Virus record (IMG/VR): IMGVR_UViG_3300032243_000867 | Coordinates: 96,001 to 160,000 of that record | Length of the DNA: 64,000 bases | DNA from: a virus | Lineage: Duplodnaviria > Caudoviricetes | Strand: one strand, 5' to 3' | Part shown: positions 30,848 to 37,655 of the stretch, piece by piece | Layout of the letters: the number at the start of each line of letters is the position of its first letter | Position numbering within the stretch: the stretch's first letter is position 1 | Position numbers and translations under genes: made by a program | The notes under the pieces: model-generated | What the model was told of the DNA's origin: nothing | Seen by the model: only the letters and a program-made list of their open reading frames with translations | Database searches by the model: none

Positions 30848-32044
30848 ATGAATCAGCCGCACCCCCTCGCGAAGCTCAACAACAAGAACGGTCTCGGATG
30901 GTGGGATTGGGTCCGCCCCGAGGACGGCGTTCGTCAGATCGTCCTCACGGGAGAGGGTTGTCTGTCCGACGCCCATACCGAATCCCTCGCCGGGGAGTTC
31001 CTTACGGACTCTCACTACGAGGTGCTTCTACGCCCCGAGGACGGAGACGTGGACGTGTACAAGCCCCGGGTTGTCGGGGCGTTGGATATGCTCATGGGCG
31101 AGGGGGAGAGCGCGGGAGAGCTTTCCGAGTCTCGTCTCCTCCTTTCTATCCGTCGCAAGAGGTTCCCGGCGGGTCTGTGCTCCGTTGCCCGTGATTCTCT
31201 TCGCGCCGCAGCCTTTCCGTCGCGCAACCGAGGTGCGGCAGCGGGGAAGGCAGACCCGGAGAAGATGAAGCGTGATTCGTCGTTGGTTCTCTCCCGGGGG
31301 AACACGGCGAAATACTACACCAAGGACGGATTGCTCTCGAACACCACCGAGAGCAACTGGGTGAATTCTGGGATCGTAGGGTACTTCAACGCCACGTCCC
31401 GGAACCCCTACTGCCGTCAGACCGCGTACACCCGCGACAACGCGGACAAGTTCGCGGCGGCGATGCCCTTCCTCGAAGAAGTCAACCGGGCGTTTCGAGA
31501 CGTGTCCCCGGCGCGGTGGGGGGCTCAGAACCGTTACGTCTCGGAGGAGACGGACCTCCGCGAGAAGGGCTGGCTTCTCGGGGACACGGTGTTCTCGACG
31601 GTCACCGTCAACAAGAACTACCGCACGGGTTGCCACCAAGACGCCGGGGACTACCACCCCGGGTTCGGCAACCTCACCGTTTTCGAGGGTTCCGCCCACC
31701 GCTACGCGGGCGGGTACACGGTGTTCCCGAAGTTCCGCTGCGCCGTGGATCTCCGCGAGGGGGACTTCATCGGGATGGACGTTCACGAGTGGCACGGGAA
31801 CACGGAGATGACGGCGGCGGTCCCGGGAGAGGATGACTGGGAGCGGGTTTCCCTCGTCTGCTACGTTCGGGTGGACATGACCCGGTGCGGCACCCGCTCT
31901 GAAGAAGAGCGGAAGCGAGAGGAGTGGACCAAGACCTGGAGGAACCCGGTCGAGCAGCACGCCTTCCGTCTCGAAGAGGATCGACATCAGCAAGAGGGTC
32001 TCGCCAACGCCATGGGCGTATTGTTCTCTTCGGAGGAAGAATGA
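30848..32044 (+). CDS. TET/JBP-family 2OG-Fe(II) dioxygenase
   Basis: SRNRGAAAG, SGIVGYF...PYCRQTAY, FSTVTVNKNYRTGCHQDAGD (HxD), HEWHGNT (distal H) and RVSLVCY (RxS). Confidence 0.9.
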   Translation: MNQPHPLAKLNNKNGLGWWDWVRPEDGVRQIVLTGEGCLSDAHTESLAGEFLTDSHYEVLLRPEDGDVDVYKPRVVGALDMLMGEGESAGELSESRLLLSIRRKRFPAGLCSVARDSLRAAAFPSRNRGAAAGKADPEKMKRDSSLVLSRGNTAKYYTKDGLLSNTTESNWVNSGIVGYFNATSRNPYCRQTAYTRDNADKFAAAMPFLEEVNRAFRDVSPARWGAQNRYVSEETDLREKGWLLGDTVFSTVTVNKNYRTGCHQDAGDYHPGFGNLTVFEGSAHRYAGGYTVFPKFRCAVDLREGDFIGMDVHEWHGNTEMTAAVPGEDDWERVSLVCYVRVDMTRCGTRSEEERKREEWTKTWRNPVEQHAFRLEEDRHQQEGLANAMGVLFSSEEE

Positions 32045-32625
32045 GTACAGAAGGTCCGAAGGTTCTCTGGGTGCTCGGTGAGCCTGGGGTGGGGAAGACA
32101 ACTCTGGTCCGTGAGCTCACGAAGGGAACTCTGTTTTCATTCGTCGAGAACCCGAAGTGGACCTTTGCCGGGGAAGGGTTCGCTCTCGCTGGTCACTACA
32201 AGGGCGGGACGTTCGACGGCGCGGACACGGTTCCCTACAACGGGGCTGACGCCGCACTGATCTACTGGGAGCAGAACCTTCGGGGCAAGTACCCGGTGAC
32301 GATTCTGGACGGTGACCGTTTCTCTCACGACGGTGCTCGGCGGTTTTTTTCGCCCCTCGCGTCTACGTTCGCGGTTCTACTGACGGCCCCTTCGGAAGTC
32401 GTCTCCGCCCGCAGACAGGAGCGCGGGTCGAATCAATCTGCTTCCTGGGTGGCGGGGCGGAAAACGAAGTCCGCCCGTTTCTTCGAGGGTTTCGATAACT
32501 CCCACGCCCTTCAAATCGACGCCTCGCTCCCGGTTGAACAGATTGTGGAACGGGTGAGGGACCTGTTGCAGAACGGCTCTGGGCGGGACAACTCCGACGG
32601 TCTTCTCTCTTGGTTGGGATCGTGA
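32041..32625 (+). CDS. P-loop kinase, 5-hydroxymethylpyrimidine DNA kinase-like
   Basis: Walker A GEPGVGKT, GHYKGGTFDGADT and ILDGDRF. ATGA-coupled to the TET stop. Confidence 0.75.
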   Translation: MSTEGPKVLWVLGEPGVGKTTLVRELTKGTLFSFVENPKWTFAGEGFALAGHYKGGTFDGADTVPYNGADAALIYWEQNLRGKYPVTILDGDRFSHDGARRFFSPLASTFAVLLTAPSEVVSARRQERGSNQSASWVAGRKTKSARFFEGFDNSHALQIDASLPVEQIVERVRDLLQNGSGRDNSDGLLSWLGS

Positions 32626-33572
32626 GCGATCTTCTCTCTTGGTTCGGTGAAGCCTCTGCGCCAGCCCCTTCCGAGACCGCCCCTTACTACGAACGCCCCT
32701 TGTTCGATTCGTTCGTGAAGTTCGCGAAGGCCCATATCGAGAGCGGCGACATCGACCCGGCTTACCCGGTCTTGAAGGAGGTCTACCGGATGCGGGGATA
32801 CTCCCGCGAGACTGCCCTCTGGCACACTCTTCTGTACGTCACTTGGTACAACGTCGGGTCCGCCGAGGAAGCGTTCGCCCGATACCCCAATGCCCCGTCA
32901 AGGCTCGAAGAGCCTCTGACCCTTCCGACGGGCACGGAGCGCCGTTCGTTTCGCGGTAACGATCTGGCCCGCACTCACCTCAACGCTCTTCTGGAGAGGG
33001 CTCGCCCCCACGGATCCCTTTCACGTTGGGCGGAAGCCGCAACGGAGAAGGGCGGGGAAGCGGGCTGGGACGGGATACGGACGGAGTTCCAGAGCGTGAA
33101 ATACGCGGGTCCTTGGAGCAGCTACAAGCTCGCTGACCTCCTCGCCCACGTTCACGACTTCCCCATCACAGCTTCGGACCTCGGTATCGGGGGGGCGAGT
33201 GAGACAGCGGGTCCGATTCCCGGTATGGTCAAGCTCACCGGGTACGACTGGAAGAAGTGCGCGACGGACCTCGGACTCCAGCGGGAGCTTTTGGCCCGCA
33301 GCCGCGACCGGGGCGTACCCTTCTCTGGCCTCGACCAACTAGAAACCTCCCTGTGCGACTTCAACTCTCTCTGCAAGGGTAGGTACTACGTCGGGCACGA
33401 CCTCGACCAGCAAATGGAGCACCTCCGTAGCGCGAGCGCCGCCGAGGACTTCTGGACCGCCCGCAGAAAGACGTTCCCGGTTCGTTATCTCGGAGAGGTG
33501 AACGGGTGGTTCGGCGTAAGAAAATCCCTCAAGGACAAGTTTCATTTCAACGGCGATCTGGTGCAGATCTAG
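32622..33572 (+). CDS. Amino acid:DNA transferase (AADT / aGPT-Pplase2 family)
   Basis: GDIDPAY, ERRSFR, GPWSSYKLADLL and ETSLCDF...GRYYVGHDLD. GTGA-coupled to the kinase stop. Confidence 0.8.
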   Translation: MSDLLSWFGEASAPAPSETAPYYERPLFDSFVKFAKAHIESGDIDPAYPVLKEVYRMRGYSRETALWHTLLYVTWYNVGSAEEAFARYPNAPSRLEEPLTLPTGTERRSFRGNDLARTHLNALLERARPHGSLSRWAEAATEKGGEAGWDGIRTEFQSVKYAGPWSSYKLADLLAHVHDFPITASDLGIGGASETAGPIPGMVKLTGYDWKKCATDLGLQRELLARSRDRGVPFSGLDQLETSLCDFNSLCKGRYYVGHDLDQQMEHLRSASAAEDFWTARRKTFPVRYLGEVNGWFGVRKSLKDKFHFNGDLVQI

Positions 33573-33584
33573 GGGCGAATGGAA

Positions 33585-33796
33585 ATGAGACGCGCCTCAA
33601 ATAGGTTGAGGACAGGGAAGATTCTCTGCTGTCACGTCACAGATGCCAATCTCAACTATTCCGGTAGCGCGACAACGGATCCGGCGCTTCTGGAAGCGGC
33701 GGGGCTCTCCGAGAGGTCGAGATCTGGAATGTGACCGACGGAGAGAGGTTCTCCGCCTACCTTCCCAATTCATCGAAGTCCCGCAAGGAAATCTGT
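33585..33796 (+). pseudogene. panD: Frameshifted, truncated aspartate 1-decarboxylase relic
   Basis: First frame reads GKILCCHVTDANLNYSGSATTDPALLEAAGL. After a shift at ~33713 it reads EVEIWNVTDGERFSAY...KEIC, then runs into the PLP gene start. Confidence 0.75.
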
Positions 33797-34610
33797 GAGT
33801 CTTCTCATCGAAGGAACACCCGTCGAACGGGTAACTGATCGCGTCTCCGTGAAGCGGGAGGATATGTGCTCCCCCTTCCCTGGACCCTCTTTCAGTAAGA
33901 TCCGGGGCGTGCTGAAGCACATCGAGAAGCGCCCGGAAACCGAAATCGGGGTTCTGGACACCTACCACTCCAAAGCGGGTTGGGCCGTGTCCTACGTCTC
34001 CCACCACCTGGGTAAGAAGGCTCTGGACTTTTACCCCCGATACAAAGGGGACGGACCCGAGGTGCGGGATCAGCAGAAGATGGCGCGGGAGTATGGCGCG
34101 GAGCTTTTCGAGCTTCCGGCGGGACGTAGCGCGATTCTCTATCACCAAGCGCGTAAGGAGTGCGTACGGCGCGAAGCGTACCTCATGCCCAACGCCCTGA
34201 AGCTGCCGGAAACCGTGGGGGAGTGTGCCGAGGAGGTTCTCCGTACCCCAGACCTTCACAAGTACGCGAATCTAGTGATCAGCGTCTCGTCGGGGACGAT
34301 AGCGTCAGGGGTGCTTCTTGGTTTCGCGAAAGCCAAGATTTACCCGACTGTCTGGCTCCACGCCGGGTACTCGCGTTCCGAATCCGAGCTCCGCCGATAC
34401 ATCACGGCGAAGGTTCCGAAGTTGTCTTTCTGGCCTTCAGAAGTGAACCTCATCGACGAGGGCTACGGATACAAGGACGCCGCGAAGATCGACGACCCGC
34501 CCCCCTTCCCCTGCAACCCCTACTACGACCTGAAGGCGTGGAAGTGGCTGAAGAGCGGGGCGGAAGATCGAATGACGGGCGAAATTTTGTTCTGGAACGT
34601 CGGGGCGTAA
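33795..34610 (+). CDS. PLP-dependent enzyme (fold type II), putative modified-base decarboxylase
   Basis: VKREDM...SKIRG (Schiff-base Lys), SVSSGTIASG and FPCNPYYDLKAW...FWNVG. Confidence 0.8.
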   Translation: MSLLIEGTPVERVTDRVSVKREDMCSPFPGPSFSKIRGVLKHIEKRPETEIGVLDTYHSKAGWAVSYVSHHLGKKALDFYPRYKGDGPEVRDQQKMAREYGAELFELPAGRSAILYHQARKECVRREAYLMPNALKLPETVGECAEEVLRTPDLHKYANLVISVSSGTIASGVLLGFAKAKIYPTVWLHAGYSRSESELRRYITAKVPKLSFWPSEVNLIDEGYGYKDAAKIDDPPPFPCNPYYDLKAWKWLKSGAEDRMTGEILFWNVGA

Positions 34611-34642
34611 GTCCCCAAAACTCTGAAACTGAAAGGCACGCG

Positions 34643-36106
34643 ATGGATCTCGACGCATGGCTCGAAGAAGACCTCACCTCGGAGGAGACGAAACAAGCCT
34701 ACCAGTATTTCATGAAGCCCGAGCCCCGCGACATCGCCGGGGACTTGGAGACGGACCCGGAGACGGGCATCCGTTCCCGGCTCATGCGTATCGGAATGCT
34801 TCGGGGCATGAAGGACGAGGACAAGAAGACCTATCGGGTGTATCTTGACCCGATTCCCCACATCCGCATCGACGAGGGCAAGCCTCTTCAGGCTTGGTAC
34901 AAATCGAAGCACGAAGAGCCCGGTGTCCGCAACCGCCCGTGCTTTACCGAAGCGATCCTCACCCAGCCGTACGGAGGGTTCTGCGCGGTGGGTTGTGCTT
35001 TCTGTTACATCAATAGCGGGTTCAAGGGCTACCGGGGATCGGGCCTTATCTCCGTTCCGATGGGGTACGGGAAGCAGGTCCGGGAGTCCCTGAAGAAGAT
35101 GAAGACCTCGGCAGCGGGGTACTTCAGCTCTTTCACCGACCCGTTCCTTCCCTTGGAGGACGTTTACCACAACACGCAGGAAGGCGCTCAGGCGTTCGTG
35201 GATGAGGGGCTCCCCATCTTCTTCCTCTCCCGCATCAAATACCCTTCCTGGGCGTTCGATCTTCTGCGGCAGAATCCGTATAGCTACGCTCAGAAGAGCA
35301 TCAACTGCGCGAACCAGGAAGACTGGAAGCGCCTGTCCCCCGGCGCGGCATCCCTCGCTACTCACATGGAGGACATCCGCGAGCTTCGCAAGGCGGGCAT
35401 CTACGTCAGCATCCAAGTCAATCCCATCATCCCCGGAGTCGTGAATCATGACGACGTAGAGCAGGTGTTCGAGATGCTTGCGGAAGCCGGGGCGAACCAC
35501 GTCATCGTGAAGTTCGTCGAGGCCAGCTACTCTTGGGCTCCCGCGATGGCGGAGAAGATCCGTTTCCGCTTCGGGAAAGAGCGCGGAAGTAAGTTCGAGA
35601 GCCTCTTCACCGAGAACATCGGGGGTCAGCGAACCATCGTGGAGGAATACCGGATGGAAGGTCACCGCCGATACCAGAAGGCGGCTACCCGTCTCGGGAT
35701 GACGTACGCGACCTGCTACGAGTACCGGATGGAGCGGGATGCCGCCGGAAGGGTCACGAACAAGACGGGCGTGTCCGTGGGAAAAGAATTCCTCACGGCG
35801 GATCAGTGCCACGGACACAAGGTGCCGATGTTCACCCGGTCCGATCAGAAGGAGCCCTTCCGCGAAGTTTCACACTGCCCGCCGACGGGATGCCTCTCCT
35901 GTTCGGACGACAACGGCGGGAAGGCCCGCTGCGGTTCCGAGTTGTACGGCGCGGCAGCGGCGCTTCGCCTACCGGACTTGAAGGTCGGGGTGTACGATGA
36001 CGTTCCCGCTTCGCGGAAGCGTTCGCTCCCCGTGATCAACACCCCGGCCCCCGCTCCCCTCCCCACGACCATGTCCGAAATCCTCGGGCTGAGCGGAGAA
36101 GAGTAG
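34643..36106 (+). CDS. Radical SAM enzyme
   Basis: CAVGCAFC (CxxxCxxC). SD gaaagg before ATG 34643. Confidence 0.9.
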   Translation: MDLDAWLEEDLTSEETKQAYQYFMKPEPRDIAGDLETDPETGIRSRLMRIGMLRGMKDEDKKTYRVYLDPIPHIRIDEGKPLQAWYKSKHEEPGVRNRPCFTEAILTQPYGGFCAVGCAFCYINSGFKGYRGSGLISVPMGYGKQVRESLKKMKTSAAGYFSSFTDPFLPLEDVYHNTQEGAQAFVDEGLPIFFLSRIKYPSWAFDLLRQNPYSYAQKSINCANQEDWKRLSPGAASLATHMEDIRELRKAGIYVSIQVNPIIPGVVNHDDVEQVFEMLAEAGANHVIVKFVEASYSWAPAMAEKIRFRFGKERGSKFESLFTENIGGQRTIVEEYRMEGHRRYQKAATRLGMTYATCYEYRMERDAAGRVTNKTGVSVGKEFLTADQCHGHKVPMFTRSDQKEPFREVSHCPPTGCLSCSDDNGGKARCGSELYGAAAALRLPDLKVGVYDDVPASRKRSLPVINTPAPAPLPTTMSEILGLSGEE

Positions 36107-36571
36107 TCACCCCACCCACCACTCCGGGCGATTCCTCCGCCAAGTCCCCAACCTCCCCCCTCGCTTCGTCTGGTAGTACCTCCGATACGCGCCCACCGAT
36201 TCGTGACCTCTCAGTTCCACGGGCATCGCTTGGGCGAACGGGGTCATCATTCGGTCGGGGAGGGAGGGGACGTTCTCTGCGAGGTGGAGCAGCACGGCCT
36301 CCGTGGCGTGCGTCTTCCCGTACCGGGCCGTGTACTCGCGGCACAGTTCCAGACCTAGCTCGCACAGCCACAGGTAGTTTGCTTGTGAGTCTCTCGCCCA
36401 CACGGCGCAAGGGTGGTTCGCGTGCGTCGGTCGGTACGGGGCGGTACTCCCCGTGAGGTGATGGGCGGTGCAGAGTAGCTGCGCCGTTTCCAGCACCATC
36501 TTCACGACGTGGGCATCGCAGTGCCACCGTGCGGCTTGGCGGGGATCGTAGTGGAGGGCGAAGACGTTCAC
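36107..36571 (-). CDS. denV: Pyrimidine-dimer DNA glycosylase / endonuclease V-like protein
   Basis: MNVF.L...HCDAHVVKMVLETAQLL...THANHPC..W...Y..RYGKTH...AYRRYY. Confidence 0.85.
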   Translation of the reverse strand: MNVFALHYDPRQAARWHCDAHVVKMVLETAQLLCTAHHLTGSTAPYRPTHANHPCAVWARDSQANYLWLCELGLELCREYTARYGKTHATEAVLLHLAENVPSLPDRMMTPFAQAMPVELRGHESVGAYRRYYQTKRGGRLGTWRRNRPEWWVG

Positions 36572-36609: not shown

Positions 36610-37059
36610 ATGGAACCCGCCCGCCCGGTCCTGTACTTCGGGTACGGGTCGAACCTGAACGTGCCCGTGATGCTATCGCGGGTGCCCCACGCCAAGTTGC
36701 TGTTCGGTGCGTACCTCCCCTACCACAAGCTCACCTTCGCGGGCGATCACCCGATCAGCGGCGGTGGCGGTAAAGCGACGCTGGTGCCCGCGATGTCCCT
36801 CGTGCCCGGTGCCTTGTACTCGGTGACTCGCGATGACCTTCACCTACTGGACCACATGGAGGGCACCCCCACGGGCAACCACCGCCACAACGAGTACGTC
36901 TACGGCTGGGACGGCACCCGCTACGAAGCCTTCATGTACCGCCAGAACTCGGGCACCCCGTACCACCAGCCCTCGGAAGAGTACCTGCGGATGATCGTCG
37001 AGGGCCGTAAGATGTTCGGATACCCTTTCTCCGACGTGATCCAAGAGGCCATGCGATGA
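36610..37059 (+). CDS. Gamma-glutamylcyclotransferase (GGCT/AIG2-like)
   Basis: YFGYGSNL...LDHMEG...PSEEYL. Confidence 0.85.
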   Translation: MEPARPVLYFGYGSNLNVPVMLSRVPHAKLLFGAYLPYHKLTFAGDHPISGGGGKATLVPAMSLVPGALYSVTRDDLHLLDHMEGTPTGNHRHNEYVYGWDGTRYEAFMYRQNSGTPYHQPSEEYLRMIVEGRKMFGYPFSDVIQEAMR

Positions 37060-37655
37060 CCCCCGGCACGCACAAGCTCCCGCCCCTGCCCTACGCCTAC
37101 GATGCCCTTGAGCCGTGGATGGGCGCGGAGACGGCGCGGCTGCACCACGGCAAACACCACCAAGCCTACGTTGACGGGTTGAACGAAGCTGAAGTCGAGC
37201 TCGCCAAGGCGAGGGCTTCGGGCGACATCAAGCTCGTCCCGTACTGGCAGACCCGGCGAGCGTTCAATGAGGGCGGGCACGTTCTGCACTCGATCTTCTG
37301 GCATTGTATGTCGCCCGACGGCGGCGGGCTTCCCGCGGGCAACCTAGCCACCCTGATTGACCGGGACTTCGGCGGGTACAAGGCGTTCCGCCGTGAGTTC
37401 GTCGCCACGGCCAAGGGCGTCGAGGGGTCGGGCTGGGCGGTTCTCGTACTCAAGCGCGGGATGCGCGGTGGACGCCTAGAGGTGGCACCCGTTCACAATC
37501 ACGAGAACCGCGCCCTGTGGCAGTCACAGGTGCTGCTCCCGATGGACGTGTGGGAGCACGCCTACTACCTCGACCACCAGAACGACCGGGAGGGCTGGGC
37601 CAACACCTTCCTCGACCATCTGGTGGACTGGGACTACGTCGGAACGAGGCTCTAA
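37056..37655 (+). CDS. sod: Fe/Mn superoxide dismutase
   Basis: LPYAYDALEP, HHGKHHQAYV, GGHVLHSIFW, GSGW and DVWEHAYY. Confidence 0.97.
   Translation: MTPGTHKLPPLPYAYDALEPWMGAETARLHHGKHHQAYVDGLNEAEVELAKARASGDIKLVPYWQTRRAFNEGGHVLHSIFWHCMSPDGGGLPAGNLATLIDRDFGGYKAFRREFVATAKGVEGSGWAVLVLKRGMRGGRLEVAPVHNHENRALWQSQVLLPMDVWEHAYYLDHQNDREGWANTFLDHLVDWDYVGTRL

Follow-up and report, generated by a model that had tools for sequence, protein, structure and literature searches.

A known thymidine hypermodification pathway is that of phage M6, in which a kinase, an amino acid:DNA transferase (AADT), a radical SAM (rSAM) isomerase and a PLP-dependent decarboxylase convert 5-hmdU in DNA to 5-(2-aminoethyl)uridine (PMC8989533). 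In other phages, TET/JBP-like enzymes encoded next to kinases and AADTs are thymine dioxygenases that produce 5-hmU post-replication (PMC13229309). The stretch of DNA analyzed here (hereinafter the window; 64,000 nucleotides, bases 96001-160000 of the 265,895-bp IMG/VR virus record IMGVR_UViG_3300032243_000867) comes from a very large phage, given that a record of this size is only 59% complete (CheckV), and encompasses homologs of all four components of the M6 5-NedU pathway (gp51, AADT; gp52, PLP-dependent enzyme; gp53, rSAM; gp54, kinase).

The operon is located on the plus strand and begins with a TET/JBP-type dioxygenase gene (30848-32044; PF12851, E 3e-17), the product of which is likely a thymine dioxygenase making 5-hmU in DNA; M6, in contrast, starts with a dUMP hydroxymethylase. 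This gene is followed by that of a P-loop kinase (31924-32625, start uncertain), likely a 5-hmdU DNA kinase, which shows weak matches to Pfam P-loop kinases and 69% identity to the syntenic gene of the related locus L005, and then by the AADT gene (aGPT-Pplase2; 32610-33572; PF18724, E 3e-12). The next gene encodes a PLP-dependent enzyme homologous to the M6 gp52 decarboxylase (33795-34610; PHROG 7093, E 3e-84; Pfam PALP) and is 53-56% identical to the PLP genes of M6-like phages, and the last one encodes an rSAM enzyme homologous to the M6 gp53 isomerase (34643-36106; PHROG 9252, E 1e-206). The longest rSAM open reading frame (ORF; 34160-36106) shares 450 nt with the PLP gene; the true start is placed near 34643 because homology to PHROG 9252 begins at residue 162. 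Thus, the kinase, AADT, PLP and rSAM genes are adjacent and co-oriented as in an M6-type cluster, according to the Pfam and PHROG matches and to synteny with phages SN1 and MP1412, in whose records PLP homologs are annotated beside the rSAM gene; the AADT-PLP-rSAM order is identical to that in M6 (Lee et al. 2021, PMC8989533). Judging by this gene complement, the operon is expected to follow the M6 pathway, except that the thymine dioxygenase would feed it, with 5-(2-aminoethyl)uridine derived from glycine as the predicted product.

Immediately downstream of the operon, there is a minus-strand ORF (36107-36571) with a weak match to pyrimidine dimer DNA glycosylase (Pyr_excise, E 6e-4), followed on the plus strand by a GGACT/AIG2-like gene (36610-37059; Pfam) and a gene for an Fe/Mn superoxide dismutase (37056-37655; both Pfam domains, E about 1e-28). 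The latter is located two genes 3' of the rSAM gene and overlaps the end of the GGACT/AIG2-like gene.

A decayed panD in the AADT-PLP gap

Between the AADT stop codon (TAG, 33570-33572) and the GTG codon of the PLP gene lie 222 bases of the plus strand (33573-33794). A preliminary description of this locus reported, from the sequence of the gap, PanD-like (aspartate decarboxylase) segments in two frames, and both profile and BLAST searches bear this out: the region 33579-33796 matches positions 5-41 of the PanD profile (PF02261) in one frame and, exactly colinear with these, positions 42-70 after a shift to the -1 frame. The first piece (33579-33713, plus strand; E 2e-7, 31.3 bits with a family cut-off of 25) starts with an ATG 6 nt past the AADT stop, includes the N-terminal strand and the motif NYSGS and extends as far as LLEAAGLSE; the Met-started translation of this frame 1 (33579-33731) reads GKI..HVTDANLNYSGS..D.ALLEAAG and is terminated by a TGA (33732-33734). 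The second piece (33713-33796, plus strand, frame 3, that is, the frame of 33581; E 2e-3, 18.5 bits) reads EVEIWNVTDGERFSAY...KEIC, and the PanD homology stops at its end, beyond which the frame stays open without PanD similarity until a stop at 33838. In a tblastn search of PanD against the gap, the check proposed in the preliminary description, the bacterial PanD P0001 yielded two colinear alignments (residues 8-38 with 33615-33707, 68% identity; residues 42-70 with 33710-33796, 45% identity; summed E 2.4e-11).

The two pieces comprise only about 37 and 29 residues, so that a chance likeness to PanD in non-coding DNA had to be considered. Its probability is negligible: the first piece by itself has a genome-wide E of 2.2e-7 in a six-frame PF02261 scan of the entire 265,895-bp record, where the only two matches are those of the relic, the second piece adjoins the first one and continues it in the profile, and no other tblastn match to PanD within the 64-kb window has an E below 0.1. 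Chance similarity is thus already refuted by the match statistics, and the feature in the gap is a genuine decayed panD, which belongs to the PF02261 family by the score of its first piece and by the colinearity of the second.

The frame change, suggested earlier to lie near 33713, maps to 33707-33716 (plus strand, -1), where PanD residues 39-41 are reduced to 2 nt, a net loss of 7 nt compared to canonical PanD in the one assembled sequence; the first tblastn alignment ends at 33707 and the -1 frame resumes at 33710, with three missing columns. A complete PF02261 domain of about 115 positions (a double-psi beta-barrel) is not present in any single frame: only positions 5-70 are represented, split in two, and neither the six-frame PF02261 search nor tblastn detected positions 71-115 in the window or in the whole 266-kb record. 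Past position 70, where Asn72 and the NGAAA segment belong, there is unrelated sequence that runs into the PLP gene.

In the alignments, the relic retains Lys9, Tyr22, Gly24-Ser25, Arg54 and Tyr58, whereas His11 is replaced by Leu, Arg12 by Cys, Ile26 by Ala and Thr57 by Ala; Gly62 is also lost, and the YIIxGE segment is scrambled. The self-cleavage site Gly24-Ser25, the source of the pyruvoyl group, is present as described previously, with NYSGS aligned to NY[VI]GS of PanD. Two other motif readings hold in part. The tyrosine of FSAY is indeed retained and corresponds to Tyr58, the catalytic proton donor, but the residue next to it is the Ala that replaces Thr57; and the KxH motif is eroded with respect to the histidine (now Leu), whereas the lysine is still there. 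According to published work on E. coli PanD, Thr57 is needed for activation through pyruvoyl formation. Being frameshifted, devoid of the C-terminal 40% and altered at Thr57, the relic, as judged from these lesions, cannot encode a working enzyme and is predicted to lack aspartate decarboxylase activity; the Thr57 replacement and the missing C-terminal part would render it inactive whether or not the frameshift is real.

Indel errors occur in metagenome assemblies, and it could be proposed that the frameshift is an assembly or sequencing error and that a working panD exists. We regard such an artefact as a very remote prospect: the gap amounts to 7 nt rather than 1, key residues are lost, and, with the frame restored, positions 71-115 would still be missing, with a complete, conserved PLP gene in their place. 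Furthermore, both flanks are syntenic with those in relatives, which makes a chimeric join unlikely. Two forms of recoding were rejected as well. Programmed -1 frameshifting is not compatible with the absence of an X XXY YYZ slippery heptamer at 33700-33720, and the C-terminal 40% is gone regardless; readthrough of the TGA at 33732 is excluded because the PanD homology goes on in another frame. The two PanD frames are still enriched in third-position GC (GC3 of 0.64 and 0.75, compared to 0.71-0.87 in the neighboring genes; a small sample), a hint that panD was a resident of this site for a while and that its inactivation is fairly recent.

As stated in the preliminary description, the relic is cut where the PLP gene begins: the last codon aligned to PanD (TGT, 33794-33796) shares two bases with the PLP start (GTG, 33795-33797). 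A Shine-Dalgarno-like AAGGA (33785-33789, plus strand) lies within the final codons of the relic, 5 nt upstream of this GTG, which is the sole canonical start in the open PLP frame. The resulting N-terminus, MSLLIEGTP, conforms to the pattern found in homologs from ten other loci (Met, 4-6 residues, [G/N]TP), and because the GTG start yields this family pattern, the PLP gene is whole, with a complete N-terminus. The position of the cut is explained by the fact that a longer deletion would have destroyed the PLP gene.

The AADT-PLP junction in related phages

About 70 loci with AADT and/or PLP homologs, which fall into three AADT clades, were gathered from IMG/VR and JGI metagenomes; no PanD match was detected in the flanks of any of these, and PF02261 is absent from 51 of the whole AADT- or PLP-bearing virus records behind these loci, 13 of which are at least 90% complete. 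In the nearest cluster found, L005/L051, the TET, kinase, AADT, PLP and rSAM proteins are 64-85% identical to those of the window (74% for AADT and 84% for PLP); here, the stop codon of AADT and a candidate PLP start overlap in the sequence ATGA, with a GTG located 18 nt downstream, and the junction contains no PanD sequence. In M6-like Yuavirus phages, a single base separates the AADT (AADT2) and PLP genes. The AADT-PLP-rSAM order recurs across many clades. Hence panD is not a regular component of the M6-type cluster, the only other AADT-linked case being the contig L010 discussed below.

Phage AADT homologs are found in roughly 17 GenBank records of the window clade and 350 of the L010/ViI clade, with about 69 M6-like records, the last tally being based on blastn matches to the PLP-rSAM genes. 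By organism tallies, none of the 15 GenBank records with a PanD match appears to come from an AADT phage, with a direct test confined to phages 2-1 and Jace. AADT relatives 72-80% identical to the window AADT (P0077, P0078, P0079 and P0080) were identified in Logan/ENA assemblies. No closer relatives of the cluster were found in viral, metagenome or genome contigs, with the metagenome contigs representing only the same three lineages, and these contigs yielded no closer relative in which panD is intact or less decayed. Searches with the relic itself gave a consistent picture. No close homolog was detected in viral contigs (with a relic piece as the query) or in genome contigs; in a set of 5.8 billion proteins searched with the two pieces joined by X, all matches were ordinary bacterial PanDs, with a best identity of 57%, a ceiling that holds for the word-sharing candidates of this set; and an exhaustive phmmer search of 1.84 billion representatives retrieved nothing close. 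That identity to the relic does not exceed 57% among these candidates, and that the exhaustive search gave nothing close either, argues that the relatives represented by P0077-P0080 are without a closely related intact panD. The approximately 65 residues of the relic are too few to resolve the source taxon.

Several M6-like loci contain inserts between the AADT and PLP genes (L018:4741-5007, L031:4292-4777, L035:4688-4981, L034:2365-3033 and L016:4052-4948). The inserts in relatives encode a GIY-YIG endonuclease, a DUF4326 protein, a P-loop NTPase and an uncharacterized product of about 270-300 aa, and a small Zn-ribbon/TM ORF is inserted at the junction in several contigs. The AADT-PLP junction is therefore a recurrent landing site for unrelated inserts.

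Two further variations on the cluster were noticed. In L007 (6001-8453) and L053, phage contigs of about 249 kb, the AADT gene is followed directly by the rSAM gene, without a PLP gene, which suggests that the pathway ends at the isomerized amino acid or employs another decarboxylase. The rSAM isomerase of L005 (4482-6887) is a single 801-codon ORF with an in-frame insert of approximately 316 aa after residue 121; the insert shows weak intein-splicing/HINT matches and, on this evidence, is likely an intein in a DNA-modification enzyme.

Origin and fate of the relic

Taken together, these observations make it highly probable that the relic is a dead, lineage-specific panD insert at the AADT-PLP junction of an M6-type operon. 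Under this scenario, panD would have entered this phage lineage late, between the AADT and PLP-decarboxylase genes of an operon of the M6 (5-NedU) type. Subsequently, the 3' approximately 40% of the gene would have been deleted, with the deletion endpoint at the PLP start, the net 7-nt loss would have shifted the frame, and conserved residues (His11, Ile26, Thr57 and Gly62) would have been lost. The remaining 5' approximately 60% could form neither the double-psi beta-barrel nor the pyruvoyl group and would have no enzymatic role; it would now be transcribed as an operon spacer, the final codons of which supply the ribosome-binding site and the GTG start of the PLP gene. Because the start codon and the N-terminus are retained, we lean towards the view that panD was once whole at this site; alternatively, only part of the gene may have been inserted to begin with. 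A late insertion, rather than an ancestral panD, is the most economical history since L005/L051, the M6-like phages and the 51 whole records all lack panD; a clean loss of panD in L005 is conceivable.

The preliminary description had proposed instead an ancestral operon in which panD either supplied beta-alanine as the AADT donor or acted as a pyruvoyl decarboxylase that the PLP enzyme later displaced; displacement by the PLP-rSAM pair is a variant of this idea. The precise end of the stump at the PLP start and the intact panD in another AADT operon (L010) can be quoted in favor of this proposal, but the comparative data run against it and we consider it quite improbable: AADT-PLP-rSAM adjacency without panD is common to the closest relative, the distant M6-like phages and other clades, the count of PF02261 in 51 whole AADT- or PLP-bearing records is zero, the PLP N-terminus is native and complete, and a pyruvoyl enzyme would not form a Schiff base with an amino acid linked through its alpha nitrogen. 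The variant in which an intact panD was split by insertion of the PLP-rSAM pair was rejected because no match to the PanD C-terminal part exists anywhere in the window or the record; the gap after the rSAM gene holds the minus-strand ORF with the weak Pyr_excise match and no 3' part of PanD. It is similarly improbable that the relic has been kept for a non-enzymatic role, with expression of the PLP gene tuned by a translated 51-codon leader ORF or by an mRNA element. The ATG with a G-rich stretch 6 nt past the AADT stop, the provision of the Shine-Dalgarno sequence and the start of the PLP gene, and the persisting GC3 phase would fit such a role, and yet the 51-codon ORF stops 60 nt short of the PLP start, a distance that precludes coupling of the two, and the PLP genes of relatives have no such leader. 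Neither does the RNA recommend itself as an element: its predicted fold is no more stable than those of shuffled sequences (z = -0.27), nothing relevant was found in Rfam, and the relic region contains no terminator-like site and no plus-strand promoter-like site, the sole promoter-like site being on the minus strand. An RNA element in the relic was accordingly dismissed, and the dead, late insert remains the preferred explanation.

panD and thymidine hypermodification

The co-occurrence of panD with an AADT cluster in another genome, anticipated in the preliminary description, was found once. The unrelated phage contig L010 (IMGVR_UViG_3300005095_000172; 140,623 bp, 79% complete) encodes an intact PanD (124 aa; PF02261, 160 bits) with all key residues, within an operon of the order dUTPase_2, NT5C, PanD, GATase_6, AADT, 5-hmdU DNA kinase 2 and Amidoligase_2 (panD and its neighbors from NT5C to Amidoligase_2 at L010:8639-13616); an additional 5-hmdU kinase gene is located upstream of the operon. 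The panD gene is tightly packed on the same strand, one gene (GATase_6) away from AADT. The L010 AADT is ViI-like and so belongs to a clade other than that of the window AADT, and its partners are a GATase and an amidoligase rather than PLP and rSAM enzymes. Both the L010 PanD and the relic are canonical in type, yet they share only about 35-59% identity, which, together with the different AADT clades, indicates independent acquisitions. Moreover, the AADT relatives of L010 itself (L074, L076-L083) lack panD and in L074 NT5C abuts GATase_6, so the L010 panD is an add-on as well; the L010 PanD used as a query retrieved itself only. Just downstream of this operon, a 690-codon ORF (L010:14835-16907) contains an intein splicing domain and an HNH endonuclease.

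AADT is encoded in about 1% of GenBank phage records, and by a rough estimate a random gene would be found within one or two genes of AADT in fewer than 1 in 1,000 phages, compared to one AADT-linked case, L010, among the seven other PanD-bearing phage records (relic excluded). The proximity of panD and AADT in L010 is thus suggestive of a functional link but, given the tendency of accessory genes to accumulate in islands of this kind, does not settle the matter. The combination of genes in L010, previously unreported, may specify a new thymidine hypermodification.

If panD was once functional in the window lineage, the chemically sensible role would be to supply free beta-alanine as the amine donor for AADT; in L010, if its PanD is functional, provision of beta-alanine for the amidoligase would likewise make chemical sense. 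The argument for a functional tie comes from one other locus, L010, and we regard it as possible, though somewhat less likely than not, that panD served the modification pathway, with provision of beta-alanine as the amine donor for AADT or an amidoligase as the most plausible role, rather than being an unrelated metabolic moron. An equal rival is such a plain metabolic moron, of the kind present in phages 2-1 and Jace, that makes beta-alanine for CoA synthesis. Lee et al. argued for the PLP step that a free primary amine is required (PMC8989533); since the pyruvoyl cofactor, like PLP, has this requirement, PanD is unlikely to decarboxylate an N-alpha-linked aspartate tethered to DNA. A bolder scenario, which we consider doubtful, is that panD is a recurrent functional add-on, such that phages of the L010 type would place beta-alanine on 5-hmU-derived DNA through AADT or the amidoligase, yielding a hitherto unknown thymidine that bears beta-alanine, and the ancestor of the window phage would have briefly done likewise before the M6-type product took over and panD decayed.

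By itself, the relic is unremarkable, a pseudogene of a well-known enzyme in a known type of phage operon, and leaves the present product of the phage unchanged. Together with L010, it shows at least two independent entries of aspartate decarboxylase into thymidine hypermodification clusters, a link of which we found no published mention in a literature search. Should this link be functional, beta-alanine would join the building blocks of hypermodified DNA as a new one; the panD-AADT association in L010 is a moderate lead, and the relic is a pointer to it. In addition, the AADT-PLP junction is documented here as a hot spot for the gain and loss of accessory and selfish genes.

With the phage clusters linked to T-dioxygenases (PNAS 2026, PMC13229309), the window operon shares the TET/JBP-like enzyme, the P-loop kinase and the AADT; GATases, kinases, AADTs and ParB are named for these clusters, and aspartate decarboxylase is absent from that list. 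Compared to the M6-like phages, which are without panD, a distinctive feature of the window operon is the panD stump between AADT and PLP. In relation to bacterial PanD (PF02261; E. coli and M. tuberculosis), the relic keeps the canonical N-terminal half at 45-68% identity but is split over two frames, has no residues past about 70 and thus neither Asn72 nor NGAAA, and carries Ala for Thr57 and Leu for His11.

A PanD query recovered five IMG/VR contigs (L010 and L011-L014), among which only L010 has an AADT. The PanD of Achromobacter phage 2-1 and of L011-L014 is a variant that has HWETY where the canonical type has RFSTY, and [H/N]GPP[A/S] where that type has NGAAA, so that Arg54 is replaced; variant-type genes are found at L011-L014:10001-10320 and L008:6983-7375, with no link to AADT, and the HWETY-type variant may have a different substrate. 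The PanD of the Rhodococcus/Gordonia phage Jace (gp87) is of an intermediate type (RWTTY, LNGGGAR). The free-standing panD genes of phages 2-1 and Jace and of L011-L014 are thus phage-borne as well but, unlike the relic embedded in its modification operon, they are intact and have no AADT nearby.
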